From the NCBI GenBank assembly GCA_029907255.1, contig JARYMF010000007.1:37896-101895 (forward strand): 64,000 bases of DNA, read 5' to 3'. Below, one piece after another: positions 2,328-39,000 of the stretch (position 1 is the stretch's first letter; each line of letters opens with the position of its first letter). The DNA is from Armatimonadota bacterium. GTDB lineage: Bacteria > Armatimonadota > UBA5829 > DTJY01. The notes beneath the pieces are model-generated. The model made no database searches. It worked only from the letters and a program-made list of their open reading frames with translations, and was not told the DNA's origin. A program made the translations under genes and the position numbers.

Positions 2328-2343
2328 TGGCACACGAATTGCT
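2328..2343 (+). promoter_or_regulatory. Sigma-54 -24/-12 promoter upstream of flgB
   Basis: Sequence cccTGGCACacgaaTTGCTgtaaata. GG-N10-GC spacing is exact. It ends 42 nt before the flgB ATG. Confidence 0.6.
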
Positions 2344-2385
2344 GTAAATACGTTGCCCATCGCATAAAGGCAGGTTGAGGTAGAT

Positions 2386-2772
2386 ATGGTACGCAGTTTC
2401 TTCTCAGATTTAACGACTGTAATGTTGGCTAAATGCTTGGATGCTTGTGGCTTAAGACAACGCGTCATTGCCAACAATATCGCAAATGTTGAGACGCCTG
2501 GCTTCACGCGCTCGGAGGTGGCTTTCGAAAGCCGTCTTAAGGAGGCGCTCGAAGCTACAAGTGAGGAGTCAGCAATAAGCCGAATTGAGAAAATCCAGCC
2601 TGAAATTATACAGGATAACATTTCGCCAGCAAGACCAAATGGGAATAACGTCTCGATCGAGAAAGAAATGGCTGATATGACGAAGAACTCAATGCAATAC
2701 GAAGCCCTTGTTCAGCTAATGAACCTCAAAGCAGCCATGATTCGCATGGCGATGAATGAAGGGAGGCGTTAG
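2386..2772 (+). CDS. flgB: Flagellar basal-body rod protein FlgB
   Basis: 128 aa. N-terminal rod motif NNIANVETPGFTRSEV. First gene of the rod/MS-ring block. Confidence 0.9.
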   Translation: MVRSFFSDLTTVMLAKCLDACGLRQRVIANNIANVETPGFTRSEVAFESRLKEALEATSEESAISRIEKIQPEIIQDNISPARPNGNNVSIEKEMADMTKNSMQYEALVQLMNLKAAMIRMAMNEGRR

Positions 2773-2774
2773 CT

Positions 2775-3185
2775 GTGGGTAGTTTTTCCTCAATGGACAT
2801 AAGCGCATCGGGACTTTTCGCCCAACGAGTTCGCTTGGATGCTATTGCCAACAATATTGCAAACGCAATGACTACCCGTACTGAGAAAGGTGGACCATAT
2901 AAAAGGCTTGAGGTTGTTTTCAAGGCTTCAAGTGGTCAATTCGACCCCTCAAACGCGGGTGTGCAGGTGGAATCAGTTGTGGAAAGCGACGACCCACCTA
3001 AGATGATTTATGACCCCTCGCATCCCGATGCTGGGCCTGATGGAATGGTCGCCATGCCGAACGTGAATATTGTGGAGGAAATGGTGGACCTAATTAGCGC
3101 AACAAGAGCTTATGAGGCGAATATCATGGCAATTAATGCCGCACGTTCTATGATAAGCAAGGCTTTGGAGATCGGAAGAACATAA
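2775..3185 (+). CDS. flgC: Flagellar basal-body rod protein FlgC
   Basis: 136 aa. Motifs ANNIANAMTTRT..GGPYKR and C-terminal ATRAYEANIMAINAA. Confidence 0.9.
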   Translation: MGSFSSMDISASGLFAQRVRLDAIANNIANAMTTRTEKGGPYKRLEVVFKASSGQFDPSNAGVQVESVVESDDPPKMIYDPSHPDAGPDGMVAMPNVNIVEEMVDLISATRAYEANIMAINAARSMISKALEIGRT

Positions 3186-3194
3186 TGGGGGCAA

Positions 3195-3494
3195 GTGATA
3201 GCCATGAGGATAGAAGGAATTGGTAGTGGAATTTCAAAAAACCCGGTTTCAATAATAGAAACCACCAATAAAGATAGGAGTTTCGGGCAGTCGATAAGAG
3301 ACGCGATTTCCGAGGTAAATCGTCTTCAAACGGAAGCAGACCAGCTCGCCACAAAGCTTGCAGTAGGTGACGCTGTCGAGATACACCAGGCGATGATTGC
3401 CATGCAGAAAGCAAGCACCGCACTGCAGTTCACTGTTCAAGTTAGGAACAAGATTATAGAGGCTTATCAAGAAATTATGAGGATGCAAGTCTGA
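3195..3494 (+). CDS. fliE: Flagellar hook-basal body protein FliE
   Basis: 99 aa. The C-terminal alpha-helical segment MQKASTALQFTVQVRNKIIEAYQEIMRMQV is typical of FliE. Position between flgC and fliF fits. Confidence 0.85.
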   Translation: MIAMRIEGIGSGISKNPVSIIETTNKDRSFGQSIRDAISEVNRLQTEADQLATKLAVGDAVEIHQAMIAMQKASTALQFTVQVRNKIIEAYQEIMRMQV

Positions 3495-3509
3495 AGAGGT
3501 AAGTAACTA

Positions 3510-5057
3510 ATGGAGCAATTGGCTAAATTTGGTCCGTTTCAAGCTGTTGGAAAGTTTTGGAATGCCCTAACAGGCACTCAGCGTTTCATAAGTGTTATTT
3601 TTATCTCCACAAGTATAGTTTTGCTTATTGTTGTATCGGTTTTAGCTACAAGGCCAAGAATGGAGGTACTTTTTGCAGGGTTGGAATCCACCGATGCCGG
3701 CGCAATTGTTTCTAAGCTTCAGGAAAAAGGAATTCCTTATGAAATTAGTGGCGGCGGCTCTGTTATCAAAGTACCTGAGCGAAGCGTTCATGAGATGCGT
3801 TTGGCTATGGCGACTCAAGGCTTGCCTCAAGGTGGAAATGTTGGATTTGAAATCTTTGACAAGACAACCTTTGGGATGACGGAGTTTTCACAGCGCTTGA
3901 ATTACCAGCGTGCATTGCAGGGCGAACTGAGTCGAACAATTAGCCAGCTCGATATGGTTGATCAGGCAAGAGTTCATATTTCTATCCCGGAGCCAAGCGT
4001 CTTTAAGAAAGACAATAAGGAGGCGTCGGCGTCTGTGGTAGTCAAGCTGCGCCCTGGCGGGAGGTTGGAATCTGAGCAGGTAGCTGGCATAGTGCATCTT
4101 GTTGCGTCTGCAGTTTCTGGGTTAGACGCAGACCACGTGACCGTTATTGATACCCATGGCAATGTGCTCTCAGAAGCTGGTGAGTCTGAAACCGGAATTG
4201 ACCCTCGACTTAGTGCTTCTCAATCTCAGCTCAAGAGGAACTACGAACGCCAAGTTGAGAAGGACCTTCAGGCCATGCTTGACCGTGTTGTTGGGCCCAA
4301 CAAAGCAGTTGTAAAGGTAAATGCAAGGATGAACTTTGATCGCCGTGAAACAAGCAGTGAAACTTATATTCCGGTGGGAAATGGCAGAGGCATACTTTTG
4401 AGCGAAGAGCACGAAGAAGAAACGTATGGCGGCAATTCCGGGACTGTGGGCGGTGTTGTCGGAATAACGGGCAACGTTCGGCCCTCCGTTTCGAGGACCG
4501 TTGGGCAAAATGCAGGCTATTCCCGCATTCAAACAAGCAACAAATATCAGGTTTCCAAGACAACTGAGCATGTGATTAGGGCGGCTGGATCGGTGGACCA
4601 ACTTTCGGTTGCTGTAGTGCTTGATCAAAAAGTTGATGCATCGAGGATACCAGCTATTCAAAGCGCTGTTGAGGCGGCGGTTGGCGCAGATCCTAAGAGA
4701 GGTGATAGAGTAATCGTACAGAGCATACCCTTTGATGATTCCGCAACAAAACTAGAGAAAGAAATGAATGCGGCAGCCGCAAAGCAAAACTATCTGTCAA
4801 TTGGGAAAAGCATTCTTGGGGTACTCCTTCTCTTTGGATTCCTTTTCTTTTTAAAGCGGACTGTTAGTCAAATCAAGGTTAGCATTCCCGAACCACCGAT
4901 GCCATCAACTGCGTCGCCTCAGACAGCTCAGGTCATGACCGGCAAAGAATATATGACACCTCAGTCGGTTCCAAACGAGGTGGTAATACAAAGTATTGGG
5001 CAAAAGAGTCCCGAAGAAGTAGCCCAAGTTATTAAATCGTGGATTTCAAAATCGTAA
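3510..5057 (+). CDS. fliF: Flagellar MS-ring protein FliF
   Basis: 515 aa. N-terminal TM segment, then LPQGGNVGFEIFDKTTFGMTEFSQRLNYQRALQGELSRTI, then a C-terminal TM segment. Confidence 0.9.
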   Translation: MEQLAKFGPFQAVGKFWNALTGTQRFISVIFISTSIVLLIVVSVLATRPRMEVLFAGLESTDAGAIVSKLQEKGIPYEISGGGSVIKVPERSVHEMRLAMATQGLPQGGNVGFEIFDKTTFGMTEFSQRLNYQRALQGELSRTISQLDMVDQARVHISIPEPSVFKKDNKEASASVVVKLRPGGRLESEQVAGIVHLVASAVSGLDADHVTVIDTHGNVLSEAGESETGIDPRLSASQSQLKRNYERQVEKDLQAMLDRVVGPNKAVVKVNARMNFDRRETSSETYIPVGNGRGILLSEEHEEETYGGNSGTVGGVVGITGNVRPSVSRTVGQNAGYSRIQTSNKYQVSKTTEHVIRAAGSVDQLSVAVVLDQKVDASRIPAIQSAVEAAVGADPKRGDRVIVQSIPFDDSATKLEKEMNAAAAKQNYLSIGKSILGVLLLFGFLFFLKRTVSQIKVSIPEPPMPSTASPQTAQVMTGKEYMTPQSVPNEVVIQSIGQKSPEEVAQVIKSWISKS

Positions 5058-5069
5058 GGTTGGTGTGCT

Positions 5070-6128
5070 GTGACTACCCAAGATTCATTAAATGGTCTTC
5101 AAAAAGCATCTATTCTATTAATGTCGCTGGGTGCCTCTGCATCCGCGGAGATACTAAAGCACTTAAGTGAGCAAGAAATCGAGATGCTCACAAGAGCGAT
5201 TGTTCAAACTGAGCGTGTCGACCAAGAGGTCCGTGACATGGTGCTAGAAGAATTCCAGCGCGAACTTGCAGTTGCAGAGACCTCTTTGACCGGCGGCAAA
5301 GATTTTGCGGTACAAGTGCTCGAGCAGGCATTGGGCCAAGAAAAAGCAAGCAAACTTATTACACATTCGAGTAAGTCAACTTCTGGGAATACCCTACAGT
5401 CAGTTTGGGACATAGAGCCGGAAAAATTGGCAAAAACAATCGGCAATGAACACCCTCAAATTGTTTCTTTGCTACTCCTGAACCTCCCGCCAAATACTGC
5501 GGCAGGGGTACTCTCAAAGCTTGATCCAGAATATCAAGCGGAGGTAGCTACTCGCATATGTACGATGGGCGAAGTAGATCCTGGGGTCATAGCAGAAATT
5601 GAGGCTGCATTGAGGCCCAAAGAGTCAGGCGTAGCTGTTGAAGAGGTAGAGTTGTTGTCTGGCCCAGCTGCCCTTGTTGATATTCTAAATAACGTTGACC
5701 GCGTAACTGAGCGAGCCGTTCTCGAGGCAATGAACGCCAGGGATGAAGCTACGTGGCAGCAAGTTCGCAAGATGATGTTCCTATTTGAGGATATTGTTAA
5801 GCTCAGCGACAGGTCTGTACAGCTGGTGCTGAGGGAAATTGACCAGGATGACTTGCGCCTTGCTGTAAAGGGTTGTCAAGATGAAATAAAAGAAGTCATA
5901 TTTCGCAACATGTCTGAACGTGCAGTAGAGAGTTTGAAGGAAGACCTTGAATTAATGGAAAAGGTCAAGCAAAAGGATATAGACGAAGCCCAACAGCGGA
6001 TTGCCTCGGTGGTCAGGCGGATGCTGGCTAGCGGCGAAATTACGCTTGATGAAGATGAAGAGTCAGAAATGCCTGCAGAGGAATCGGTTACTGAGGGAGA
6101 CAAAGTTGAACAGCCTAATCAAAGCTAA
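5070..6128 (+). CDS. fliG: Flagellar motor switch protein FliG
   Basis: 352 aa. Conserved middle and C-terminal FliG motifs are present, e.g. MMFLFEDIVKLSDRSVQLVLREI. Confidence 0.9.
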   Translation: MTTQDSLNGLQKASILLMSLGASASAEILKHLSEQEIEMLTRAIVQTERVDQEVRDMVLEEFQRELAVAETSLTGGKDFAVQVLEQALGQEKASKLITHSSKSTSGNTLQSVWDIEPEKLAKTIGNEHPQIVSLLLLNLPPNTAAGVLSKLDPEYQAEVATRICTMGEVDPGVIAEIEAALRPKESGVAVEEVELLSGPAALVDILNNVDRVTERAVLEAMNARDEATWQQVRKMMFLFEDIVKLSDRSVQLVLREIDQDDLRLAVKGCQDEIKEVIFRNMSERAVESLKEDLELMEKVKQKDIDEAQQRIASVVRRMLASGEITLDEDEESEMPAEESVTEGDKVEQPNQS

Positions 6129-6789
6129 AGTAGTTGCTCAAAGTGAGCCGGTATACATTGTTGCTTGTGATACTGAAATAAAGAAGAGACGGAAAAGAAG
6201 TACTTCCTCGCCTCAGGACCAGGCTCGTGCGGTTGTGGAGAGTGCCAAAGAAGAAGCAGCACAAATTTTGGAGAATGCCAATCGCGAGGCAGAGGCAATC
6301 CGCGCTGCGGCTTACAATGAAGGCTACCAGGCTGGCCTTAGGGAGTTAAATGCTGAAAAGGAGGCTTTAGCTGAGCGGGCGGCTTTGGTAGAGAAGGAGG
6401 CAGAAAAGCAGCTTGCTGAATTTTGGGCTGAAATTGAGCCCGAATTGCTGAAGCTTGCAGTGGAAATTGCAGAGAAAATTATACGTCATGAGCTTGCAGA
6501 GAACAATAAATACGTGCTTTCAACGGTCAAGACTGCACTTTACCAGCTTCGGGACCGCAGAGAAATCAAGATAAGAGTTAACCCCAATGATTATGAGCTA
6601 GTTCGCAGTCATAAAGATGAGCTCGTTTGCTCGTTCGATGGGGTGCATGAGTTGGAAATTATCGAAGACCGTCGAGTTGATCAGGGCGGGTGCGTTATAG
6701 AGTCGGCTAACGGAGAACTAGATGCACGGATTGCCACACAGCTTGCCGAGGTAGAGCGAGCACTTATGGAGGCAGCACATAATGGCTAG
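6106..6789 (+). CDS. fliH: Flagellar assembly protein FliH (start uncertain)
   Basis: The ORF is open from 6001. An in-frame TTG at 6106 is preceded by GGGAG. Coiled-coil EAEAIRAAAYNEGYQAGL is followed by a C-terminal FliH domain. It overlaps the fliG stop by 23 nt. Confidence 0.7.
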   Translation: MNSLIKAKVVAQSEPVYIVACDTEIKKRRKRSTSSPQDQARAVVESAKEEAAQILENANREAEAIRAAAYNEGYQAGLRELNAEKEALAERAALVEKEAEKQLAEFWAEIEPELLKLAVEIAEKIIRHELAENNKYVLSTVKTALYQLRDRREIKIRVNPNDYELVRSHKDELVCSFDGVHELEIIEDRRVDQGGCVIESANGELDARIATQLAEVERALMEAAHNG

Positions 6790-8122
6790 CACCATTAGAC
6801 GCCCCGACCTTCGCCGATACAGTCGGGTTGTTAGCAAGCTTAATACTATGAAACTAAACGGCAAGGTTAGCCAGGTTGTTGGCGTTGTTATCGAATCTCG
6901 TGGCCCTGCTGCCCGACTAGGTGAGGTGTGCGAGATCTATGCCAGCAGGAACGCACCTCCAGTTCTTGCTGAGGTCGTAGGTTTCAAGGAGGATTCTGTT
7001 CTCTTGATGCCTCTCGGTGACATGGATGGGATTGCTCTCGGAAGCGACGTCATTGCAAGGGGAACCTCCCTAAAGGTTAAGGTCGGCGAAGACCTGCTTG
7101 GAAGAGTACTTGACGGACTTGGAAGGCCAATTGACGGTGGCGGGCCGATTACAGTAGAGAACGAGCTTCTTGTTAATAGAATGCCGCCGCCTGCTCTTGA
7201 ACGCCGGCGGATTCAAGAACGCTTGGCATTTGGAATAAGAGCGATTGATGGTCCTTTGGTTTGCGGCAGAGGCCAAAGGATAGGAATATTCGCAGGCAGT
7301 GGAGTGGGGAAAAGTACGCTTCTCGGTATGATTGCACGAAACACAGAAGCTGATGTGAACGTGATTGCTTTGGTAGGCGAGCGTGGCCGCGAGGTGCGGG
7401 ATTTCCTTGAAAAGGATCTTGGGCCGGAAGGTCTTGCTAGGTCGGTTGTTGTCGTTGCAACGTCAGACCAAAATGCAGTTGTCCGCTTGAAGGGTGCTTT
7501 GGTAGCTACGACAATCGCGGAGTATTTTCGCGACAAAGGAAAAGAAGTCATGCTTATGATGGATTCGATTACAAGAGTTGCTTGGGCACAGCGTGAGATA
7601 GGTTTAGCAGTTGGTGAGCCACCAACAACAAGGGGATACACGCCGTCGGTTTTCGCTTTGCTACCGAAGCTATTGGAACGTTCTGGGACCGCAGCCGTAG
7701 GTTCAATCACAGGTTTGTATACAGTTCTTGTGGAAGGCGACGATATGAACGAGCCAGTTGCGGATTCTGTAAGGAGCATACTTGACGGTCACATTGTGCT
7801 TTCGAGGGACCTGGCAAATCGAAACCACTATCCTGCAATTGATGTGCTTGCAAGTGTTAGTAGGCTGATGCCGGACATAGCCTCAAAGGAGCATTTGGAG
7901 GCAGCCGGTAAGTTAAGAGATTTACTAGCAACCTATCGGTCGGCTGAGGACCTAATCAACATAGGCGCGTATGTTGATGGTAGCAACCCAAAGATTGACG
8001 AGGCTAAACGCAAGATAGATGATGTGAATAATTTTCTTATACAGGGCACATATGAGGATGCTCCGTTTGATGAGACAGTATCTGCATTAGTAAACCTTAT
8101 AAGGAGTGAGGAAAAGGCATAA
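6782..8122 (+). CDS. fliI: Flagellum-specific ATPase FliI
   Basis: 446 aa. Walker A GSGVGKST and a T3SS/F1-type ATPase core are present. Confidence 0.92.
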   Translation: MASTIRRPDLRRYSRVVSKLNTMKLNGKVSQVVGVVIESRGPAARLGEVCEIYASRNAPPVLAEVVGFKEDSVLLMPLGDMDGIALGSDVIARGTSLKVKVGEDLLGRVLDGLGRPIDGGGPITVENELLVNRMPPPALERRRIQERLAFGIRAIDGPLVCGRGQRIGIFAGSGVGKSTLLGMIARNTEADVNVIALVGERGREVRDFLEKDLGPEGLARSVVVVATSDQNAVVRLKGALVATTIAEYFRDKGKEVMLMMDSITRVAWAQREIGLAVGEPPTTRGYTPSVFALLPKLLERSGTAAVGSITGLYTVLVEGDDMNEPVADSVRSILDGHIVLSRDLANRNHYPAIDVLASVSRLMPDIASKEHLEAAGKLRDLLATYRSAEDLINIGAYVDGSNPKIDEAKRKIDDVNNFLIQGTYEDAPFDETVSALVNLIRSEEKA

Positions 8123-8184
8123 GCAAGGAGTTATCCGTAAGCCGAAAAATGATAACGCTTTCTTCAAACGCTAGGTGATAAGTT

Positions 8185-8661
8185 ATGAAAAGCTTTCGGT
8201 TTAATCTCCAGAAGGTTCTTAACTACCGTGAGAATGTGGAAGAAATCCTTTTAGCTGAATTGGCAGCAATTAGGGCGGCATATGACCGTGAGCTTGGACG
8301 GCTGAGCGAAATCACTGCTGCGAGGGATATGTTTCATGATGCAATGAAGAGAGAGCTTGCATATGGGGATCCTGAGTACATCCGGAGGGCTTATCACTAC
8401 CTTCAGGACTTGTCAAAGCAAGTTGATGCTCAGCAGATTACGGTACACAGACTTGCCATTGAGAAGGAAGCGAAAACAGCGGAGGTTATTAAGGCATCTC
8501 AGGATCGAAAAATATTGGAGAAGTTGCGTGAGTATAAAGCGGCCGAGCATAAACAAGAGTCGCTCAGGGAGGAACAGAAGTTCCTGGATGAAGTTGCTGG
8601 AAATAAATACATGCGAAGACGAGCAGCGAAAAGATCCATGGGGTGGAAAAATGAATCTTGA
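8185..8661 (+). CDS. fliJ: Flagellar export chaperone FliJ
   Basis: 158 aa, coiled-coil, with N-terminus MKSFRFNLQKVLNYRE. Position after fliI fits. Confidence 0.7.
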   Translation: MKSFRFNLQKVLNYRENVEEILLAELAAIRAAYDRELGRLSEITAARDMFHDAMKRELAYGDPEYIRRAYHYLQDLSKQVDAQQITVHRLAIEKEAKTAEVIKASQDRKILEKLREYKAAEHKQESLREEQKFLDEVAGNKYMRRRAAKRSMGWKNES

Positions 8662-9178
8662 AAACGTTGAAGCTGTGAAAGCCCGAATAGCAGAAATTCG
8701 CAAACGATTTGTGGACCCAGTGGAAAGATTTTCTCAATCGTCGCATTGTGCGTTTGAATGTTTCCTCAAGCGTGCCAAGATTTCCAATGTGCCAGTTTGC
8801 CCAGAGGATTTAGAGCCGCTAATTAATCAAGCTGCTGAAAAATATGGCATTGATTCCTCAATAATCAAGGCAATTATCAGTGTGGAATCGGGGTTTTCTC
8901 AGTCAGCGGTATCGAGGGTTGGGGCAGTAGGTTTGATGCAGCTTATGCCTGGTACTGCTCGTGCTCTCGGTGTTGACCCAAGCGATCCAGCGCAGAATAT
9001 AGACGGCGGGACCAGGTATCTTAGGCAGCAGCTTGATCGTTTTGGAACATTGGAAAAAGCATTGGCGGCATATAACGCTGGTCCTGGCGCAGTTTTAAGG
9101 TATGGTGGAATTCCACCATACACGGAAACTCGAAACTACGTTGAGGCTGTGTTGGGAAGGATTGATTTTTATCGCTAG
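8651..9178 (+). CDS. SLT-domain lytic transglycosylase (flagellar peptidoglycan hydrolase candidate)
   Basis: The ATG at 8651 is in frame with the long ORF 8357..9178. SLT motifs: SVESGFSQSAVSRVGAVGLMQLMP and AYNAGPGAV. It overlaps the fliJ stop by 11 nt. Confidence 0.75.
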   Translation: MNLENVEAVKARIAEIRKRFVDPVERFSQSSHCAFECFLKRAKISNVPVCPEDLEPLINQAAEKYGIDSSIIKAIISVESGFSQSAVSRVGAVGLMQLMPGTARALGVDPSDPAQNIDGGTRYLRQQLDRFGTLEKALAAYNAGPGAVLRYGGIPPYTETRNYVEAVLGRIDFYR

Positions 9179-9281
9179 TTAGTTTTTGGCAGGGGTTGTT
9201 CTGGCTTAATGACCACTGCCCAAAAAAATAAACGAAGGGAGGTAAAGCATCATAAAGGAAATAGCGAGTACACTTAACGAA

Positions 9282-11000
9282 GTGGCTTTGCCAAGTGGAG
9301 CCCCGATGCCTCGGGGACAGCCAGATAGTATCGGGAAAGATGACGTTCAGTCTGCACCGCCATTTGAGTTAATTGTGGCACACTTGATGGGCGGCTCAGA
9401 CGCTGTGGTTGAGACGGATGAGGAAAGGGCTGGACAGCAGGTGCCCGACGTTGGCAATGGTGAAAGTGAGAGCGCCGGCCAACTATCCAAAACGATGGAT
9501 GCAAGCCTTCAAATCGAGTTCCTGCTGGGGTCCTTCAGAGAAGCGGTTGGCGAAGCAGTTCCATTAGGAAGCGAAGAAGATAAAACGTTGGTTTTTGATG
9601 CAAAGCAGGATTGGATGCTACCAAAAATGTTGGGTGGTGCATCTAGCCTGACATCAGAAAAGCCAGTGTCTGTTTTGCTTTCAAAGACTGCCTCGCTATC
9701 TACTCCAACGCAACTGGCGCCAGATGCCGCACGGCTTCCTAGCGGTACTGAAATCGCGATGGATAGAGCGGCTGGCGAGTTGGCGGCTATTCAGCCCACG
9801 TCTTGGTCTAGCATTGCGGATGTCCGTAGGTTAAGTAACCTACCAGACGGCATTCAGGTTAGAGATGGAAAGGTGACCCCACAGCTATCGTCTTCCAAAT
9901 CGGATTCACGGGATGCCCTGCTAGAAATGCTGGGGCCTAAACTAACTTTGACCTACAGTGCGACTCGTTCGTTGCAACTCGATGGTTCTGCGATGCTGGA
10001 GAGTGTCCCGATTTTTCTTCAAACGGGACAGGCTAGGGAACTGGTTGCGTTTATGAATACGCACTCAGATACCATAGAAAGGACAAACCTGGCCAGTCAA
10101 TCTAACAATGCATCCCAAGCAAGGACTGTCTTTGCCGAAGCTGGTACCATGCCACTTGTCAAACCTTTGGTTGTGCATGAGTCGGCATTAGCGGCTGCTT
10201 TCTCCAATGTACAAAGCACCGCTGAGTCTGCCACTCCAGGTAGCAGTACAGCAAGAAGCAAGGAAGATAAGGTAGTGGGACATGCGCCCAAAGGTATGCT
10301 AGTTGATGCCCAAATCCTAGATGAACAGGCTTTGATTAGCCCTAGTAAGCAGGAAAACCGCATCGTAGCGGAATCAATGATGATGGATGCGTTCCAGGAT
10401 TCAAAAGATGAGTCCGCAATCTTTAGCAAGGAAGTGACCGACAAGCAAAAGGATGGTGTAGTAGGTCAGGCGGCGAGAGAAGTGCCAACCGGAGTTAATA
10501 TCCAAGGCGACCAGCTTGTGAGACCTTTTGAAAGGTTGGATGGCCATGTGCCGCCAGAGCCATTGCTGAGAGCGCATATCATTCACCAGATTGTCCGTGC
10601 TGCAAGGATGCATGTCTCCGATTCTACAGCTGACATTACGTTGCGGTTGGATCCGCCTAACCTAGGAGTTGTGCATCTGAACGTAGTAGCAGAAAGGGGC
10701 ATGGTAACTGCTAATATAAGAGTTGGCACAGAAGCAGTCAGACAGGCGCTTGAGGCGGACCTCTCGATGCTAAGAGAGTCTTTAACCAACGCGGGCATCC
10801 ATGTGGATGCAATATCAGTCACAATTGGCGATGATATGACTCCTGGTTGGGATTGGCAGCTTGGTGAGCATGGAAATGCTCGAAATTATAGTGCTCAAAC
10901 CAGCGGAAATCATGCGGCAATTTCTAGGGAATCCGATATTGAGACTATTCAAGATGGAATGCGCGCAGTTTCCGTTGGTAGATTCGACTATCTAGCGTAG
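9282..11000 (+). CDS. fliK: Flagellar hook-length control protein FliK
   Basis: 572 aa. Low-complexity N-terminal half. C-terminal Flg_hook domain ITLRLDPPNLGVVHLNVVAERGMVTANIRVGTEAVRQAL. Confidence 0.8.
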   Translation: MALPSGAPMPRGQPDSIGKDDVQSAPPFELIVAHLMGGSDAVVETDEERAGQQVPDVGNGESESAGQLSKTMDASLQIEFLLGSFREAVGEAVPLGSEEDKTLVFDAKQDWMLPKMLGGASSLTSEKPVSVLLSKTASLSTPTQLAPDAARLPSGTEIAMDRAAGELAAIQPTSWSSIADVRRLSNLPDGIQVRDGKVTPQLSSSKSDSRDALLEMLGPKLTLTYSATRSLQLDGSAMLESVPIFLQTGQARELVAFMNTHSDTIERTNLASQSNNASQARTVFAEAGTMPLVKPLVVHESALAAAFSNVQSTAESATPGSSTARSKEDKVVGHAPKGMLVDAQILDEQALISPSKQENRIVAESMMMDAFQDSKDESAIFSKEVTDKQKDGVVGQAAREVPTGVNIQGDQLVRPFERLDGHVPPEPLLRAHIIHQIVRAARMHVSDSTADITLRLDPPNLGVVHLNVVAERGMVTANIRVGTEAVRQALEADLSMLRESLTNAGIHVDAISVTIGDDMTPGWDWQLGEHGNARNYSAQTSGNHAAISRESDIETIQDGMRAVSVGRFDYLA

Positions 11001-11006
11001 GAGGAA

Positions 11007-11417
11007 TTGCGAATGATAACCCCTTTAACTGAAATTAACGGGGCGAGTAACTCAAATATGAAAGCGGCTGTGGAAAAGCCGCTCGACCGCGATGCCTTCT
11101 TGAAGCTGCTTATCACTCAATTGAGATATCAGGATCCGCTTAGACCTATGGAAGACAAAGAGTTCATTGCGCAATTAGCTCAGTTTTCAAGCCTAGAGCA
11201 AATGCAAAATATGAACAAAAGCTTGGAAGTTTTTCTTCAAAATCAAACGGCTTTCCAAGCTATCGGGCTCATAGGTCATATTGTAGAAGGAATCGATCCT
11301 GAAAGTGGAGAGAAGGTAAACGGCGCCGTGAAGAGCATTCGTTTTGATGGTAGCACAATACTTCTCAAAGTCAATGACCGCGAACTGCCTCTCGGCGCAA
11401 TAAGCCTAGTACAATAG
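11007..11417 (+). CDS. flgD: Flagellar hook capping/assembly protein FlgD
   Basis: 136 aa. Motif DRDAFLKLLITQLRYQDPLRPMEDKEFIAQLAQFSSLEQM. Confidence 0.85.
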   Translation: MRMITPLTEINGASNSNMKAAVEKPLDRDAFLKLLITQLRYQDPLRPMEDKEFIAQLAQFSSLEQMQNMNKSLEVFLQNQTAFQAIGLIGHIVEGIDPESGEKVNGAVKSIRFDGSTILLKVNDRELPLGAISLVQ

Positions 11418-11436: not shown

Positions 11437-11475
11437 GACACCCGAGTACGCTCATGTACTCGGGTGTCCTTTTTC
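11437..11475 (+). terminator. Rho-independent terminator after flgD
   Basis: 13-bp perfect stem gacacccgagtac/gtactcgggtgtc with a 6-nt loop, followed by cTTTTTc. It starts 20 nt after the flgD stop. Confidence 0.6.
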
Positions 11476-11655
11476 TCCCCATCCCATGTGAATTATTCCC
11501 AACCTTTGTTGCCGCTCAAGTGTAGAACTTCGGATGCTGATTTCCAATGGTAGTAAGATGTTCATCCCACCGCTTAAGAAGACATCCTTCATATATGGGT
11601 GAAGTAAGCGTAAAGTGCAACTCTTCTTTTTGCCCGTTCGAGAAGAAGCGGATGC

Positions 11656-11671
11656 TGGCACGAAAATTGCT
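11656..11671 (+). promoter_or_regulatory. Sigma-54 -24/-12 promoter upstream of the CheX-like gene
   Basis: Sequence gcTGGCACgaaaaTTGCTgttaatg. It ends 59 nt before the TTG start at 11731. Confidence 0.55.
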
Positions 11672-11730
11672 GTTAATGTGGCGGCGACGCGTCGTAATAC
11701 CTGTCGGCAGAAGACCCGGGAGGAGATTGT

Positions 11731-12192
11731 TTGAAAGTCGAGTATGTTAACCCATTTGTAGAGGCAGCATGTTCCGTGTTGGAGCATGTTTCGGGCACAT
11801 TAGTCAAGCCTGGTGATTTGTGCCTGCTTGGAAACCCTTTTGGTGCTGCTAGCATCAACATAGCCACAAGAGTTGAAGGAACCCTTTGCGGCATTGTGGT
11901 TCATAGCATGGCGGGTTTGACGGCTCGGCAGCTTGTAAGCCGCATAACCGGAAAGCAGTGCCAGGGCGTTGGCAGGGTGATGGGCGCAGGCTTAACCCAG
12001 CTTGGAATGATGTTTGTTGAGGTAGCTAGCAGGACGCTAGCGAAATACGGCTATCGCTGTGGACTCAGCAGCCCTACCATTTTCCATGGGCTGAATGTGG
12101 AGTTCATGTCTGAATCGCCTGCTTTGAGTATACCGCTAGAGACGGGAGCTGGCGAGGTGAATGTGAGTGTGGCGGTGAGAGGTAATGAGTAA
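11731..12192 (+). CDS. CheC/CheX-family (CheX-like) protein, probably catalytically degenerate
   Basis: 153 aa. N-terminus MKVEYVNPFVEA is CheX-like. The family ELGN catalytic pair is replaced by TQLGMM. TTG start is preceded by GGGAGGAG. Confidence 0.5.
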   Translation: MKVEYVNPFVEAACSVLEHVSGTLVKPGDLCLLGNPFGAASINIATRVEGTLCGIVVHSMAGLTARQLVSRITGKQCQGVGRVMGAGLTQLGMMFVEVASRTLAKYGYRCGLSSPTIFHGLNVEFMSESPALSIPLETGAGEVNVSVAVRGNE

Positions 12193-12565
12193 AATCACTC
12201 CAGGAATACAAATAGAACGCTCAAATATAGAGAGACCTGTGCCGATTCGACATGGTAAAGCAAATCATGGTGGTTTTGCTTCGGCATTGGCTAAAGAAAG
12301 TGAGCGTCTGGAAGGGTTGAAGATTTCCTCGCATGCCCAAAAAAGGCTCAACTCCTCAAACGTTGCTTTGTCGGAGTCGGATATTCGGCGCATTGATGGG
12401 GCTGTTCAGCGCGCCAGTGAAAAGGGCGCAAATCAGTCGCTAATAATGCTTGATAATCTGGCTCTTATTGTGAGTGTCAAAAATCGCGTCGTCATTACAG
12501 CAATTGATGAGGCTCGCAACAAAGAGGGAATCTTCACGAACATAGACAGCGTGGTAATCGCTTAA
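12185..12565 (+). CDS. Small flagellar-operon protein, TIGR02530-like, found between flgD and flgE
   Basis: 126 aa. Central KISSHAQKRL and C-terminal LIMLDNLALIVSVKNRVVITAID...IFTNIDSVVIA resemble the Clostridia flgD-flgE linker protein. Assignment is from memory of that family. Confidence 0.45.
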   Translation: MSKITPGIQIERSNIERPVPIRHGKANHGGFASALAKESERLEGLKISSHAQKRLNSSNVALSESDIRRIDGAVQRASEKGANQSLIMLDNLALIVSVKNRVVITAIDEARNKEGIFTNIDSVVIA

Positions 12566-12713
12566 GGAGGTGAGGTTAGAACCAGAAAAACTTACGTTCA
12601 CAAAATATATTTGGGGTCGGACCTCTACTGAGGAGACCCCGTGCCGCTTGATAGGCGAGCGGCACACAAAGTCAAGCTCATTTATCGAGTTTCTTCAGGA
12701 GGTCAATTAGAGC

Positions 12714-13964
12714 ATGATTCAAGCAATGTACAATGGTGTCTCGGGCTTACGAGCTCACAAGACACAAATGGACGTAATTAGCAACAACGTTGCTAATATC
12801 AATACGGTTGGCTTTAAAGCCAGCAGGGTGAACTTTAGAGAAATGCTTAGCCAAACTTTAAGAGGGGCAACCGCACCAAAATCTGGCGGATTGGGTGGAA
12901 CAGACCCCGTCCAGATAGGGTTGGGAACGAGTATAGGCAGTATTGATACTCTCTATTCCCAGGGTTCTCTCATTGCTACTGGGAAAGCTACCGATGTGGC
13001 AATTGAGGGTAGCGGTTTCTTCGTTCTTACCGACGGCCAAAGCAAATACTATACCAGAGATGGGTCTTTCCAGCTTGACTCTGAAGGCTATCTCGTATCA
13101 TCTGGTTCGGGCATGAAGGTTCTAGGCTGGGCGGCTGATCCAAATACAGGGGAAATAAACACAACCTCCCCGGTAACGTTTGAATCAGCGATACGCCTTC
13201 CTGTAGGTCAGCTAGTGATTTCACGACAGACAACCTCCATAACTTACGGAGGAAACTTAGACGCAGGTTCTGAGGCTGGACAAAGCTTTACCATAAGCGT
13301 TGAGATATACGACTCGCTGGGTGCGCCTCATACGCTTACGGTACTTTTCACAAAAACTGCAAATGACGGTGAATGGACATGGGAGGCTGGAAGTCCTGAT
13401 GCTGAGCCGGGTTCGTCTGTCGGAAGCGGAACGATAGTCTTTGATTCATCCGGTAACTGCACAACAGCAACAGGTGAGATCTCGCTAGCATTGGCATTTC
13501 CAAATGGAGCGAGCAGCCCAATTTCAGCTACGCTTGATTTTAGGGGCATTACTCAATTGGCAGGAGAGACTACCATTTGCCCGACGTCGCAAAACGGCTT
13601 GCCACTTGGTGGTTTGGATAGTTTTACAATTGGCAAGGACGGCGTCATATCAGGGTTTTTCACAAATGGTATGTGTAGTCCTCTCGGACAGATTGCCCTT
13701 GCCCAGTTTAGTAACCCATCGGGTCTAAGCCGCGTTGGCGGAAACCTGTTGGTTGAGACCAGCAATTCTGGACTACCACAGATTGGCCAAGCATCGGTTG
13801 GTAGCCTAGGGAATATCACTGCCGGTTTCCTGGAGTCATCTAATGTGGATTTGCCAACTGAGTTTGCCAATATGATAGTTGCGCAAAGAGGTTTCCAAGC
13901 AAACTCAAGAATAATTACAACCGCAGATGAAATACTTCAGGAACTGGTGCAGCTTAAGCGATAG
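12714..13964 (+). CDS. flgE: Flagellar hook protein FlgE
   Basis: 416 aa. N-terminus MIQAMYNGVSGLRAHKTQMDVISNNVANINTVGFK. C-terminus ANMIVAQRGFQANSRIITTADEILQELVQL. Confidence 0.9.
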   Translation: MIQAMYNGVSGLRAHKTQMDVISNNVANINTVGFKASRVNFREMLSQTLRGATAPKSGGLGGTDPVQIGLGTSIGSIDTLYSQGSLIATGKATDVAIEGSGFFVLTDGQSKYYTRDGSFQLDSEGYLVSSGSGMKVLGWAADPNTGEINTTSPVTFESAIRLPVGQLVISRQTTSITYGGNLDAGSEAGQSFTISVEIYDSLGAPHTLTVLFTKTANDGEWTWEAGSPDAEPGSSVGSGTIVFDSSGNCTTATGEISLALAFPNGASSPISATLDFRGITQLAGETTICPTSQNGLPLGGLDSFTIGKDGVISGFFTNGMCSPLGQIALAQFSNPSGLSRVGGNLLVETSNSGLPQIGQASVGSLGNITAGFLESSNVDLPTEFANMIVAQRGFQANSRIITTADEILQELVQLKR

Positions 13965-14060: not shown

Positions 14061-14291
14061 ATGATTGCTGTGAAGCTAATAAACGGCACGGAAATAATAT
14101 TGAACTCTGATCTTATAGAGTTCATAGAAGCAACGCCGGATACGGTAATCTCGCTTTCGAACGGAAAAAAACTTATCGTTAAAGAATCCGTGTCTGAAGT
14201 TGTTGAAAAAATTATAAATTTTCGAAAGCAGATTGGCATTACCATTAAGGGATTAAAGGTTGCCAAATCTTCGTGCGTTGATGAGGACTAA
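14061..14291 (+). CDS. flbD: Flagellar protein FlbD (SwrD-like)
   Basis: 76 aa. MIAVKLINGTEIILNSDLIEFIE...GKKLIVKESVSEV. Immediately upstream of motA. Confidence 0.8.
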   Translation: MIAVKLINGTEIILNSDLIEFIEATPDTVISLSNGKKLIVKESVSEVVEKIINFRKQIGITIKGLKVAKSSCVDED

Positions 14292-14309
14292 ATAGAGGGC
14301 AGATGAATA

Positions 14310-15095
14310 ATGGATATTGCTACCGTAGTTGGTTTAATTCTCGCATGGGGAGCAATACTAACCGCATTGATAATGGAGGGTGGTAAGGTTACAGACCTTA
14401 TCAACCCTTCTGCGTTTGTTTTAGTTGCCTTGGGTACAGCGGGTGCAACTACAATCTCGTTTTCGATGAAGCATATTCTAAGTTTGCCAGGTGTTATTCG
14501 CAACGCATTTTTCAGCAAAGAGACTGACATGCGGGAGATTATCAATACCATGGTTGAATTTGCCCGTTTGGCGCGCCGTGAAGGCATACTTGTTCTCGAG
14601 CAAGAAGCCATGAACCTTGATAACAAGTTTTTGCAAATGGGCATTCAGCTTGTAGTTGATGGCACGCCATCGGAGATGGTTCGGGAAATTCTAGAGACCG
14701 AAATAGCTTCACTTGAGGAGCGGCACAAGGTTGGTGAGAGCATTTTCTCCACTATGGGTGGATTTTCACCTACCCTTGGCATTATTGGTACGGTCATGGG
14801 TCTTATTCACATGCTCGCCAGTTTAGACGAGCCAGGAAGAATGGGACCCGCAATCGCTGCTGCATTCATTGCAACTTTATATGGTGTTTCATTTGCAAAT
14901 TTAATCTTTCTTCCTATTGGTTCGAAGCTTAAGGTGCGGACGGCCGAAGAGGTTACTACTTATGAGATGATGATTGAAGGCATTTTGTCAATTCAAGCGG
15001 GCGATAATCCGAGAATGGTAGAAGCAAAAATGATGGCTTACCTCCCACCTAAGCTCAGGCAGAACGTGACCACACATGCAGCAAGTCAGGAGTAA
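14310..15095 (+). CDS. motA: Flagellar stator protein MotA
   Basis: 261 aa, four TM segments. MotA/TolQ/ExbB signature GFSPTLGIIGTVMGLI. Confidence 0.9.
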   Translation: MDIATVVGLILAWGAILTALIMEGGKVTDLINPSAFVLVALGTAGATTISFSMKHILSLPGVIRNAFFSKETDMREIINTMVEFARLARREGILVLEQEAMNLDNKFLQMGIQLVVDGTPSEMVREILETEIASLEERHKVGESIFSTMGGFSPTLGIIGTVMGLIHMLASLDEPGRMGPAIAAAFIATLYGVSFANLIFLPIGSKLKVRTAEEVTTYEMMIEGILSIQAGDNPRMVEAKMMAYLPPKLRQNVTTHAASQE

Positions 15096-15960
15096 GATGG
15101 AGCGTCGTCGTAAATCATCTGGAGGAGAAAGTGGCGGGGGCGGCCATGACGGAGGCGGCACTCTCCGTTGGTTGCTTACCTATGCAGATATGATTACGTT
15201 GTTAATGGCTTTCTTTATTATGCTCTATTCGATGTCAATTTTGAATTTGAATAAGTTTCGCCAGGTAGCTATCTCAATTAGAAGTGGTTTCGGTGGGTTT
15301 GTGGAAGGACAAGGCAAGTCTATTCTTGGGACAAGCGGACAATTTAGCGTGAAGCCAAGCCCAATAATAGGAGAAAGTGTGGGCGTGCCTTGGAAAGTAG
15401 TAAAGAAAATCCAACGGTTTGTGCAAGAAGAAGACTTAGGCAAGTCAGTTAGATTGCGCGCAGATGAGAGAGGGCTCATTGTTAGCTTAGCTACCGATGA
15501 GATTATGTTTGCCAAGGGAAGTGCAGAGTTGTCACCCAAGGCAAAGGAAATAATTGGGGTTGTCGCTGATGTCCTTAAAGACATACCAAACTCAATTCGT
15601 GTCGAAGGGCATGCCTGTAACTTGCCTGTCTCATCAGCAAAATATCCATCAAATTGGGAGCTTTCTACGGCACGTGCTACGACTGTTGTTCGATACCTAA
15701 TCGAAGTGCTTGGTTTTCCGGCAGACAGGCTTTCGGCGGCTGGTTATGCTGATACTAAGCCTATTGCGCCCAATAATTGTGAGGCAAACCGCGCGCTAAA
15801 TAGGCGTGTGGATATAGTAGTGCTAAATTCCGAATGGGAACAGCCAAGGGAGGAGTCCAATGAGCATCGTAAACGAGAAATCGGGAAGGTTGCAGATAGC
15901 AATAATAATCGCGGTGGTGCTGGCATTGGTTCTAGGAGCAGGGGCGTTCACGTTCACTAA
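15076..15960 (+). CDS. motB: Flagellar stator protein MotB (OmpA-like)
   Basis: Single TM segment (LLTYADMITLLMAFF) and an OmpA C-like domain (NRALNRRVDIVVL). The N-terminus is Gly-rich and the C-terminal tail is long. Confidence 0.85.
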   Translation: MQQVRSKMERRRKSSGGESGGGGHDGGGTLRWLLTYADMITLLMAFFIMLYSMSILNLNKFRQVAISIRSGFGGFVEGQGKSILGTSGQFSVKPSPIIGESVGVPWKVVKKIQRFVQEEDLGKSVRLRADERGLIVSLATDEIMFAKGSAELSPKAKEIIGVVADVLKDIPNSIRVEGHACNLPVSSAKYPSNWELSTARATTVVRYLIEVLGFPADRLSAAGYADTKPIAPNNCEANRALNRRVDIVVLNSEWEQPREESNEHRKREIGKVADSNNNRGGAGIGSRSRGVHVH

Positions 15961-25898: not shown

Positions 25899-25914
25899 CG
25901 TGGAGGTGTTTAAG

Positions 25915-26205: not shown

Positions 26206-26211
26206 AAATAT

Positions 26212-26493
26212 ATGAGCGAAGGTTGGTTCACATTTTGTTTGGTTGCTGCCATAATTCTGTGTTCTGGGTGCGTTCTTGCAGCTGCAATTATGCGAACAGT
26301 TGCTATCCAGCGTCAACGTGAAGCACTTATAACAGATAACCTGCGAGCGCTCGAAGAGTCCACTGTCTTCTTGATAGAGCAATTGAGGTCAGAAACCGAA
26401 CGAATGATTGCAGAAGTTGAGCAACGAAGGGAAGTTCTTGCTGAATTAATCGCAGAGTTCGACAAACGGCTCTCGGTAATCGCTAGAAAATGA
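26212..26493 (+). CDS. Hypothetical membrane-anchored coiled-coil protein
   Basis: 93 aa. N-terminal TM segment FTFCLVAAIILCSGCVLAAAI followed by a heptad-rich tail. Last gene of the plus-strand block. Confidence 0.35.
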   Translation: MSEGWFTFCLVAAIILCSGCVLAAAIMRTVAIQRQREALITDNLRALEESTVFLIEQLRSETERMIAEVEQRREVLAELIAEFDKRLSVIARK

Positions 26494-34255: not shown

Positions 34256-34282
34256 GTTTCGACTCATTTCACCGAAACTTTA
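34256..34282 (-). promoter_or_regulatory. Candidate sigma-28-type promoter upstream of flgM
   Basis: On the minus strand: TAAA-N15-GTCGAAAC, 5/8 match to GCCGATAA. Confidence 0.25.
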
Positions 34283-34350
34283 GCGTTTTTTAATATTGCA
34301 AGCGATTGCCTAGTAAATTAAAACCCATCTAGGTTTTATCCAACCCTTGC

Positions 34351-37367: not shown

Positions 37368-37373
37368 TTATCG

Positions 37374-38162
37374 TTACCGCCTCAGATTGTTTGCAATGCT
37401 CAGCATGTCGTCTGCTGTTTGGATAGCCTTGGAATTGACCTCGTAGGCACGTTGAGCGACAATCATGTTGACCATTTCCTCAACAACCTTTACGTTGGAC
37501 ATCTCGACAAACCCATGGGCAATTGTTCCAAGCCCATTGAGACCAGGTGTGTCTACTATCGGTTCGCCCGAAGCGGCTGTTGGTGCCAAAAGATTGCGGC
37601 CAAGGTTGTTCAGACCTGCTGGATTGATGAATTTAGCTATCTGTATCTGCCCTAGCTCCTGAGGGGTAGTTTGGCCAGCCATTGTGACAGATACTGTTCC
37701 ATCTGAACCAATGCTAATGCTTGTTGCTTCGGCTGGAATTGTAATTTCCGGGTCGAGAGGATAGCCATCTGCTGTGACTATGCGACCTTGCGAGTCTAGC
37801 TTAAATGTGCCATCCCGAGTGTAGGCAGTGGTTCCATTGGGAAGCAGTACTTGGAAAAATCCATCACCTTCAATCACAAGATCGAGCGGGTTGTTGGTCT
37901 GCTGGAAATCACCCTGCGAAAATATTCGGGTAATCGCAGCTGGTCTTGTGCCAAGGCCAACTTGGATGCCTGTGGGAACCATTGAGCCTTGGGCTTCCGT
38001 TGTGCCTGCAGTCCTAAGCGTCTGATAAAGAAGATCTTGAAAATCAACCCGGCTTTTCTTGAAGCCTGGCGTGTTTACGTTAGCCAGATTGTTTGAAATT
38101 ACATCAATGTTTAGTTGTTGTGCTGCCATGCCGGTTGCGGCGGTCCACAGTGATCTTATCAT
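37374..38162 (-). CDS. flgG: Flagellar distal rod protein FlgG
   Basis: 262 aa. N-terminus [35 protein letters not shown]. Confidence 0.92.
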
Positions 38163-38174
38163 TGCTCAATCCTC

Positions 38175-38855
38175 CTAAACTGTTCTAGGCATTTGGTTGA
38201 TGACTTTGTCGAGTGTTTGGTCTATCGATTGGATGACTTTTTGATTTGCTTCGTATGTTCGGAGCGCACTAATCATAGAGACCATCTCAAGTACAACATT
38301 AACATTCGAACCTTCTAAACTTCCTTGTATAACCTTCCCAGCGGTATTTGAACTATCGGTGTGAATGCGAAGCTTGTTAACAATTGTGCCTCCAACTTTC
38401 ACGTTACCTTCGGGTTCCACTGACCAATTATCACTGGTTATTGTTATTGGCCCATTTTCACCGAGAACAGGGTTTCCTTCTTGTGTAACCAACTGCCCGG
38501 CTTGATTGAGCTTGAAATTTCCACTTCTTGTGAGAATTTCGCCAGTGGATGTACTAACTACGAAAAAGCCAGGGCCATCAATTGCCAAGTTGGTCTTAGA
38601 TTCCGTGTCAATCACCTGACCAATGGTTTCGTCTTGCTTGGTGTTAAGTATTGGGATTACACATTTGACTTGAGCGGCAGATGATCGAGGCTCAGCACCA
38701 TAAGCGTCTGAAAGTTCAGCTATAAAATTGGAAAATGAAACCCGCGTTTGTTTAAATCCTGGAGTGCTTACGTTTGCTAAGTTGTTTGAGATAATATCTT
38801 GTTGGTCTAGTTGCGCCATCATTGCTGATGCAGATGCATACAAACCCTGAATCAC
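38175..38855 (-). CDS. flgF: Flagellar proximal rod protein FlgF
   Basis: 226 aa. N-terminus [44 protein letters not shown]. First gene of the minus-strand block. Confidence 0.8.
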   Translation of the reverse strand: MIQGLYASASAMMAQLDQQDIISNNLANVSTPGFKQTRVSFSNFIAELSDAYGAEPRSSAAQVKCVIPILNTKQDETIGQVIDTESKTNLAIDGPGFFVVSTSTGEILTRSGNFKLNQAGQLVTQEGNPVLGENGPITITSDNWSVEPEGNVKVGGTIVNKLRIHTDSSNTAGKVIQGSLEGSNVNVVLEMVSMISALRTYEANQKVIQSIDQTLDKVINQMPRTV

Positions 38856-38876
38856 TTTGCGTTACCTCCGCATTAC

Positions 38877-38904
38877 TTTTCGACCGTCTGGCAATGCAAC
38901 TTTA
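38877..38904 (-). promoter_or_regulatory. Candidate sigma-28-type promoter upstream of flgF
   Basis: On the minus strand: TAAA-N16-GTCGAAAA, 6/8 match to GCCGATAA. It shares GTCGAAA with the flgM candidate. Confidence 0.25.
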
Positions 38905-38984
38905 GCGGTATTTTTAAATGCCTTGCCAGCAGCCAAATGCCGTAAGTTCAACATCGTTTAAGCAAATGCTGTCCTACAATTCCC

Positions 38985-39000
38985 TGGCATAGTAATTGCT
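38985..39000 (+). promoter_or_regulatory. Sigma-54 -24/-12 promoter upstream of the sugar-modification island
   Basis: cccTGGCATagtaaTTGCTgtatatt. Its flanks are almost identical to the flgB promoter. It ends 90 nt before the ATG at 39091. Confidence 0.55.

Follow-up and report, generated by a model that had tools for sequence, protein, structure and literature searches.

Probable sigma-54 promoters, a linked rpoN-activator module, and sigma-28-like sites in a flagellar gene cluster of an Armatimonadota bacterium

What switches on the flagellar genes of an uncultured Armatimonadota bacterium, and does the same signal reach the sugar-modification genes that lie beside them? The question arises from a 64,000-nucleotide (nt) stretch of contig JARYMF010000007.1 (the window), in which a large flagellar gene cluster follows rpoN, the gene for sigma-54, and borders an island of sugar-modification genes. 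According to the original prediction, made from this DNA, three near-identical sigma-54 sites, before flgB, before a cheX-like gene, and before a KdsC-like gene at the head of the island, would put the flagellar genes and the island under a single sigma-54 signal. We found the sites at 2328, 11656, and 38985, with both coordinates and sequences as given there (Table 1), and their distribution, sequence, and conservation make it highly probable that they are functional -24/-12 promoters of the flagellar regulon.

All three sites have the exact GG-N10-GC spacing and fit the TGGCAC-N5-TTGCW consensus. The core pattern TGGCAY-N5-TTGC occurs four times in the window, against 0.47 matches expected, and no dinucleotide-preserving shuffle reached four. 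The sites had also been said to share a TTGCTGTW extension, and indeed the extended pattern TGGCAY-N5-TTGCTGTW matches at exactly these three positions in the 64 kb (0.01 expected). Intergenic DNA makes up 5.7% of the window on our gene map; all three sites fall within it, each oriented like the gene next downstream. When the window was scored on both strands with a 24-nt matrix built solely from sites in related genomes, the three sites reached 26-27 bits, and no other position exceeded 12 bits. The fourth core match, inside the 3' end of fliR, was absent from the original prediction. We considered this match as a promoter for flhB and rejected it, given its low matrix score and a synonymous GGC to GGT change that turns TGGCA into TGGTA in L096, a relative whose fliR is 79% identical at the nucleotide level. 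Because one coding match is what chance would supply, because it scores below 12 bits, and because its TGGCA is broken in L096, the fliR match is most likely a chance occurrence. The same could be proposed for all of the sites, namely that they are fortuitous matches of a short consensus without promoter function, and the brevity of the core pattern and the fliR example lend this some color. Against it stand the enrichment of the extended motif, the intergenic position and correct orientation of all three sites, and the retention of orthologous positions, with diverged flanks, in up to four lineages; we regard a chance origin as extremely unlikely.

The neighborhood of rpoN was compared with four related loci, L081, L082, L083, and L097, whose RpoN proteins are 97, 73, 60, and 51% identical to that of the window, respectively. 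TGGCAC-N5-TTGCTG precedes flgB in all four. It also precedes the unit of cheX, the TIGR02530 gene, and flgE, after the flgD terminator, in L081, L082, and L097; the L083 locus ends short of this region and hence falls outside that comparison. Beyond the closest relative, the intergenic flanks of the sites are largely unalignable. Across 13 sites from five lineages, the invariant elements are TGGCA, the A before TTGC, and TTGCTG, and the derived consensus is (G)CYTGGCAY-N3-AATTGCTGT. Transcription starts were predicted by setting the C of the GC element at -12, which gives leaders of 32-80 nt, and Shine-Dalgarno sequences precede the start codons of all three units. The predicted leaders fold no more stably than shuffled sequence, and an Rfam scan of the window gave no matches. 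The terminator that closes the flgB operon ends 188 nt before the second site, and a hairpin occupies the same place in L082 and L097. Just after this terminator is a block that is conserved down to the 51% relative; a distance to the sigma-54 promoter that varies among relatives marks it as a candidate enhancer, at which the activator would act. The L083 locus has peculiarities of its own: a (ACTCCCAC)n microsatellite of ~20 units, at about 14400-14545, lies directly 5' of its flgB sigma-54 promoter, and an extra fliG-cheX-fliM set (11523-14248) lies between its rpoN and flgB.

Sigma-54 promoters call attention to rpoN and its activator. As had been claimed, rpoN stands next to the first site, behind a histidine kinase and a CheY-like protein that consists of a single receiver (REC) domain. 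Its product matches sigma-54 structures in the PDB, and the RpoN box, ARRTVAKYR, is invariant in an alignment of 34 homologs. The claim that the activator is encoded elsewhere fared less well. We also detected no sigma-54 activator domain among the window open reading frames (ORFs) scanned with Pfam and NCBIfam, a set from which fliP, fliQ, fliR, flhB, and flhA were missing; the counterparts of these five in L096 belong to flagellar export families only. Thus, the absence of an activator within 64 kb stands, but "elsewhere" is wrong in the sense of distant, because the gene is the next but one leftward. This emerged from L092, a locus of the same genome (0 mismatches over 15,057 nt) that reaches 6.5 kb further left. 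The order there, with all genes co-directional, is a hybrid PAS-kinase/REC protein, an NtrC-type activator, the soluble kinase, the REC-only protein, rpoN, and flgB. The activator gene occupies L092 4667-6055, 437 nt short of window position 1; the kinase gene, seen there in full, starts 446 nt before the window. The 462-amino acid (aa) activator has REC, Sigma54_activat, AAA lid, and HTH_8 domains, with a Walker A motif (GETGVGKE), a GAFTGA motif, and the receiver aspartate. It scores below every NCBIfam equivalog cut-off (AtoC, 507 versus 714; FlbD, 375 versus 750; FlgR, 361 versus 750) and thus, by sequence, is a generic NtrC-class regulator, with no sequence-level equivalence to FlgR, FlbD, or AtoC. 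No transmembrane segments were found in the soluble or the hybrid kinase. A cytoplasmic kinase and a REC-AAA+-HTH_8 regulator are therefore encoded beside the flagellar genes, and their linkage to rpoN-flgB is conserved: the order of the module is kept in four relatives, and rpoN and the activator gene are linked to the motif in every relative examined.

The activator gene itself holds a further sigma-54-type site, TGGCATGGAAATTGCTG / TGGCAYRGAAATTGCTG, at L092 6013-6031. It lies in the last 43 nt of the gene, 478 to 460 nt before the window and 5' of the kinase-REC-rpoN genes, and sites of this type recur at the corresponding place in the activator genes of L081 (8713), L082 (2738), L083 (9096), and L097 (9748). 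The site encodes ...LG(M/I/T)EIA..., and coding constraint alone could explain its presence. In a codon alignment of the activator from four lineages, however, the amino acid is conserved at 289 codons, and just 32 of these show the same codon in every lineage; 12-codon windows typically contain 0-2 identical codons, but 8-10 in the last ~25 codons, around the site. Such a spike in synonymous-codon conservation points to selection on the DNA itself. L097 has neither the kinase nor the REC gene, and there the site precedes rpoN itself by 253 nt. The activator-gene site is probably a sigma-54 promoter that drives kinase-REC-rpoN, with positive feedback on rpoN. One observation speaks against this assignment: in the genome of the window, the predicted start would leave a leader of ~6 nt before the kinase ATG, and so transcripts from this site may mainly express REC and rpoN. 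That the cluster as a whole works as a flagellum-dedicated, self-amplifying switch, with a sigma-54 from a cysteine-insert clade (described next), is a proposal that we make tentatively and rate slightly below an even chance; if true, sigma-54 would boost its own level once the activator fires.

The cysteine insert is a CxxC-N8-CxxC motif right after region I, at the start of region II, that is invariant in all 34 aligned Armatimonadota RpoN proteins. In the window protein it comprises C58, C61, C70, and C73 (numbered from the start at 801), encoded at window positions 969-1019. A scan of a genome collection with the RpoN-box peptide provided 80 sigma-54 loci from other phyla, with no Armatimonadota among the matches listed; nine of these 80 have the motif (Chloroflexota and one Candidatus Udaeobacter metagenome-assembled genome), and 71 do not. 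Solved sigma-54 of Escherichia coli and Klebsiella has an acidic, cysteine-free sequence at that segment, and region II is described in a review as acidic and without clear structure (PMC5095919). An AlphaFold2 model of RpoN places short strands in the cysteine segment, with a predicted local distance difference test score (pLDDT) of only 56-68. The insert, which would mark a sigma-54 clade of Armatimonadota and Chloroflexota, is zinc-ribbon-like and may add a regulatory or RNA-polymerase-contacting element not described for sigma-54.

How far would the sigma-54 signal reach into the flagellar genes? The CheX-like label of the gene behind the second site is sound, with a BLASTP E-value of 4e-19 to the PF13690 protein of a relative and an NCBIfam CheX E-value of 2e-10, the latter below the cut-off of the model. 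Downstream of the flgE unit comes the long flbD-to-orf93 run, in which the names fliP, fliQ, fliR, flhB, and flhA follow from the order of the ORFs and from annotated counterparts in L096. This run lacks a dedicated sigma-54 site, and no convincing plus-strand terminator was found between flgE and 26.5 kb. A hairpin of unusual stability (-42.9 kcal/mol, z = -5.6) but lacking a T tract can form in the flgE-flbD spacer (13965-14060); it could be a partial terminator or an mRNA stabilizer that sets flgE apart from the genes downstream. These features make read-through from the 11656 promoter plausible as far as fliA, and the flbD-to-fliA run is probably transcribed in this way. The relatives-trained matrix found no sigma-54 site belonging to fliA, the gene for sigma-28. 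The apparent 241-nt gap before it (24866-25106) holds a small ORF that had escaped annotation and would encode ~70 aa of hydrophobic protein; with this ORF in the gap, fliA probably lacks a free promoter region.

On the minus strand, a different promoter class appears. We looked for a sigma-54 promoter of the flgF operon and found none; in its place is a sigma-28-like site, kept before flgF in three relatives, and a second such site precedes flgM. The pattern CTAAAGT-N13/14-GTCGAAA matches twice in the window, against 0.00 expected, and both matches are intergenic and oriented toward the downstream gene. It resembles the sigma-28 consensus, TAAAGTTT-N11-GCCGATAA. The flagellin promoter was not identified. 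Because fliA lies downstream of the second sigma-54 promoter and sigma-28-like sites lie before flgF and flgM, the cluster reads as a two-tier cascade from sigma-54 to sigma-28 and not as one signal for all genes. The original idea of a single sigma-54 signal would hold for the units behind the flgB, cheX/flgE, and island sites, whereas the flgF and flgM operons have sigma-28-like promoters. It is unusual for distal rod and L/P-ring genes to come under a sigma-28-type promoter; in the classic model, export of FlgM waits until the hook-basal body is complete.

The third site leads into the sugar island, which diverges from flgF. Its first part encodes a KdsC-like HAD phosphatase, a nucleotidyltransferase/kinase fusion, a 1762-aa glycosyltransferase with Glyphos_transf, WbsX, TPR, and GT2 domains, a TPR-GT2 protein, and an aldo-keto reductase/ferredoxin protein; after a 156-nt gap follow a xylose-isomerase-like protein, cysS, a PIG-L deacetylase, and a DegT aminotransferase. 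The KdsC-like label agrees with the HAD domains found by Pfam and with the KdsC family name of the homologs. In L093 (74% FlgF identity), the same divergent island is preceded by the site TGGCATAATAATTGCTGT, in diverged flanks. L094 (58%) also has a glycosyltransferase island diverging from flgF, without a sigma-54 site; instead a sigma-28-like CTAAAGCC-N12-TCCGATAA (L094 7940-7973, minus strand) points into the island. L095 (52%) has hrcA-groEL-grpE in place of the island. Judged from these sequences, the island beside flgF is conserved, with a flagellar-type promoter on it in both lineages examined, and its sigma-54 wiring is specific to the lineage of the window. The promoter class appears to have been swapped between sigma-54 and sigma-28 in sister lineages. 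The predicted sigma-54 site before the island is therefore upheld by L093 and qualified by L094 as lineage-specific.

Apart from identical proteins, the HAD protein has its closest homologs (58-67%) in other organisms, within polysaccharide clusters that are non-flagellar and have no sigma-54 site, which indicates that the promoter was not carried along with the gene cassette. A metagenome scan with the HAD protein gave two distant loci, neither of them informative. The cassette of KdsC-like HAD and nucleotidyltransferase genes recurs in the non-flagellar polysaccharide loci L086, L088, and L091 (L091 being Omnitrophota by the label of one source); L086 matches the HAD, nucleotidyltransferase/kinase, and Glyphos_transf genes of the window, and L088 and L091 have different partners. 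This suggests a mobile cassette that the flagellar cluster of the window has recruited. Since glycosyltransferase and sugar-nucleotide genes adjoin the flagellar cluster and this arrangement is conserved in relatives, we designate the locus a putative flagellin glycosylation island, on the basis of its conserved neighborhood only. At its distal end (51082-54573), cysS is full length, with an anticodon-binding domain, and is followed by the PIG-L deacetylase and DegT aminotransferase genes; the cysS/PIG-L pair recalls mycothiol-type chemistry (MshC/MshB), which may be a coincidence.

Several observations weigh against a sigma-54 regulon of this form. No activator binding site common to the three promoters was found, and their upstream regions share no 10-mer; the best candidate has a summed 3 mismatches across the three regions, and we claim none. 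Between rpoN and flgB there is no terminator, so that read-through could add sigma-54-independent transcription. The island promoter is kept in one of two informative relatives, L093, the other having the sigma-28-like site. Finally, Pfam detected no Maf or Pse/Leg nonulosonic-acid families among the island proteins, and the glycosylation role rests on neighborhood.

The first of these observations would suit a scenario in which the 19-mer is the operator of some other DNA-binding regulator, such as a flagellar repressor, and merely resembles a -24/-12 promoter; so would the fact that the sites share more than the sigma-54 consensus needs, namely the A before TTGC and the invariant TTGCTG. Nevertheless, the invariant positions are those contacted by sigma-54 (TGGCA and TTGC, at exact GG-N10-GC spacing), the motif has no symmetry and in each case points toward the gene downstream, the predicted leaders end at start codons at a distance of tens of nucleotides, and the motif is linked to rpoN and the activator gene in every relative examined. 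An operator is, in our judgment, very unlikely. The missing terminator before flgB bears on a milder alternative, that sigma-54 only boosts or fine-tunes these genes, that most transcription comes from read-through or unrecognized sigma-70 promoters, and that the island may be an ordinary surface polysaccharide locus. A sigma-70-like site inside the island (50137-50165) fits this account, as do the HAD homologs in non-flagellar clusters and the lack of Maf or Pse/Leg genes. It accords poorly with the strong terminator that insulates the cheX/flgE unit from upstream transcription, with the position of the island promoter in a divergent intergenic region that has nothing upstream for read-through, and with the presence of a glycosyltransferase island beside flgF in three lineages, always with a sigma-54 or sigma-28-like promoter. 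We consider this alternative rather unlikely.

Under a promoter function of the three sites, one or both cytoplasmic kinases would phosphorylate the activator, which would oligomerize and use ATP to open sigma-54 holoenzyme complexes at the three promoters. The flgB promoter would drive genes for the proximal rod, the MS ring, the FliG rotor, the FliH/I/J export ATPase complex, hook-length control, and the hook cap. The cheX-like promoter would drive flgE, with probable read-through into the genes for the stator, the fliM/fliN switch, the export gate, and fliA, and the third would drive the glycosyltransferase and sugar-nucleotide genes of the island. The site in the activator gene would probably drive kinase-REC-rpoN and so place positive feedback on sigma-54; basal expression of rpoN would have to be supplied by transcripts running on from the kinase-activator genes upstream. 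FliA produced from the second unit would then read the sigma-28-like promoters of flgF through flgJ and of flgM through flgL.

Flagellar hierarchies of sigma-54 and sigma-28, and a flagellin glycosyltransferase under sigma-54 control, have been documented (PMC5550985, PMC5368276, PMC3162934), and broader surveys of sigma-54 flagellar control exist (PMC3162934, PMC12316311), one of which cites the Vibrio cholerae hierarchy and RpoN2 of Rhodobacter sphaeroides, which serves flagella (PMC12316311). In Helicobacter pylori, the RpoN-dependent flaB-jhp0106 operon encodes a putative flagellin glycosyltransferase (PMC5368276). The cluster described here resembles the FlgS-FlgR systems of Campylobacter jejuni and H. 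pylori in having a soluble kinase and an NtrC-type regulator, sigma-54 rod and hook promoters, and a later sigma-28 class; a flagellin-modifying glycosyltransferase is likewise tied to a sigma-54 promoter in H. pylori. It differs in that MS-ring, rotor, export ATPase, and probably export gate genes lie behind sigma-54 promoters. In epsilonproteobacteria, the MS-ring, rotor, and export genes are sigma-70 class I genes. Further differences from these two species are the placement of rpoN and of the genes for the two-component system within the flagellar cluster, the extra hybrid kinase and REC-only protein, and the 361-bit score of the activator against the 750-bit FlgR cut-off. In addition, a dedicated sigma-54 promoter serves an entire island of 11-15 kb here, whereas in H. 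pylori a single gene rides on flaB.

The RpoN2/FleQ/FliA system of Xanthomonas oryzae is similar in that an rpoN copy and an activator lie inside a large contiguous flagellar cluster, in which enzymes of post-translational modification and a PilZ protein are encoded as well, with sigma-54 acting first and FliA second (PMC5550985). The activator differs from the FleQ of that system in being a canonical response regulator of the REC-AAA+-HTH_8 type, accompanied by two kinases. FleQ lacks a receiver that can be phosphorylated. The FlrA(FleQ)-FlrBC(FleSR) systems of V. cholerae and Pseudomonas aeruginosa have four tiers, with sigma-54 promoters before fliE-fliJ and flgB-type operons, a soluble PAS-kinase with an NtrC-type regulator, and fliA as a sigma-54 target, followed by sigma-28 promoters. 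Our cluster shares with them the sigma-54 promoter before a flgB-type operon, the soluble kinase and NtrC-type regulator, and the order of fliA and then sigma-28. Where they use FleQ plus FleR, a single receiver-containing activator is seen here, so that two sigma-54 tiers appear collapsed into one, and flgF-flgI lie behind a sigma-28-like instead of a sigma-54 promoter. Rhodobacter capsulatus nifU2-rpoN and Rhizobium etli rpoN2 are positively autoregulated or dedicated rpoN copies. As in these and in R. sphaeroides, rpoN is linked here to one regulon and at least partly transcribed by sigma-54, as far as the activator-gene site can be taken as a promoter; the candidate promoter differs from theirs in being embedded in the last codons of an activator gene.

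A full-text literature search gave no description of flagellar regulation or sigma-54 regulons in Armatimonadota, and the phylum is unmentioned in a cross-phylum survey of sigma-54 from 2025. A mode of flagellar control that is otherwise familiar is seen here in a phylum for which we found no account of it; the mechanism is textbook, and the gain is one of breadth and not of a new principle. Sigma-54 flagellar control with rpoN and activator inside the cluster would extend to a Terrabacteria lineage, and the sites provide a concrete, testable flagellar control map for a phylum with few cultured members, together with a consensus usable for defining the regulon in related metagenome-assembled genomes. 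The island would be a case of surface-sugar genes recruited to the flagellar regulon by promoter acquisition, and its sigma-54/sigma-28 swap, if true, would imply selection for flagellar co-expression whichever sigma factor serves it.

Table 1. Features of the window, with the basis of each assignment and, for regulatory sites, their retention in related loci.
Feature	Position	Strand	Basis or prediction	Relatives
Soluble histidine kinase, 3' part	1..381	+	HisKA + HATPase_c, 275 aa, NCBIfam; cut by window edge	
REC-only response regulator, 131 aa	386..781	+	Single domain	
rpoN (sigma-54)	801..2213	+	TIGR02395, 288.8 bits versus 277.35 cut-off; gene-caller start, probably 810	
Predicted sigma-54 promoter of flgB operon, TGGCACACGAATTGCTGTA	2328..2346	+	Start near 2354, leader ~32 nt	Kept in L081, L082, L083, L097
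flgB-flgC-fliE-fliF-fliG-fliH-fliI-fliJ-SLT-fliK-flgD operon	2386..11417	+	NCBIfam, Pfam	
Intrinsic terminator closing flgB operon	11437..11468	+	14-bp stem + T tract	
Conserved block after flgD terminator, candidate enhancer	11477..11513		Alignment	Kept down to 51% relative
Predicted sigma-54 promoter of cheX-like/flgE unit, TGGCACGAAAATTGCTGTT	11656..11674	+	Start near 11682, leader ~49 nt	Kept in L081, L082, L097
cheX-like gene, TIGR02530 flagellar protein gene, flgE	11731..13964	+	Pfam/NCBIfam/BLASTP	
flbD-motA-motB-fliL-fliM-fliN-fliO-fliP-fliQ-fliR-flhB-flhA-PilZ-(small ORF)-fliA-orf111-orf93	14061..26493	+	Pfam; no sigma-54 site of own	
Core-pattern match inside 3' end of fliR, most likely chance	20466..20480	+	<12 bits	TGGTA for TGGCA in L096
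fliA (sigma-28)	25107..25898	+	TIGR02479 (FliA/WhiG), 244.8 bits versus 189.6 cut-off; Pfam sigma-70 r2, r3, r4	
flgF-flgG-flgA-flgH-flgI-flgJ-flgM-flgN-flgK-flgL-fliW-flagellin-fliD-fliS	38855 down to 26505	-		
Sigma-28-like promoter of flgM-flgN-flgK-flgL	34257..34283	-		Kept in L094
Sigma-28-like promoter of flgF-flgG-flgA-flgH-flgI-flgJ, CTAAAGTT-N13-GTCGAAA	38878..38905	-		Kept before flgF in L093, L094, L095
Predicted sigma-54 promoter of sugar island, TGGCATAGTAATTGCTGTA	38985..39003	+	Start near 39011, leader ~80 nt	Kept in L093, absent in L094
Sugar island	39091..54573	+	Pfam, NCBIfam; diverges from flgF	
Strong bidirectional terminator, latest possible end of island transcript	54588..54608	+		

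Beyond the island terminator, the interval 56718-61190 encodes two fusion proteins, one of 848 aa that joins a solute-binding protein to an ABC permease and one of 617 aa that joins a GH42-like segment to an ABC permease.

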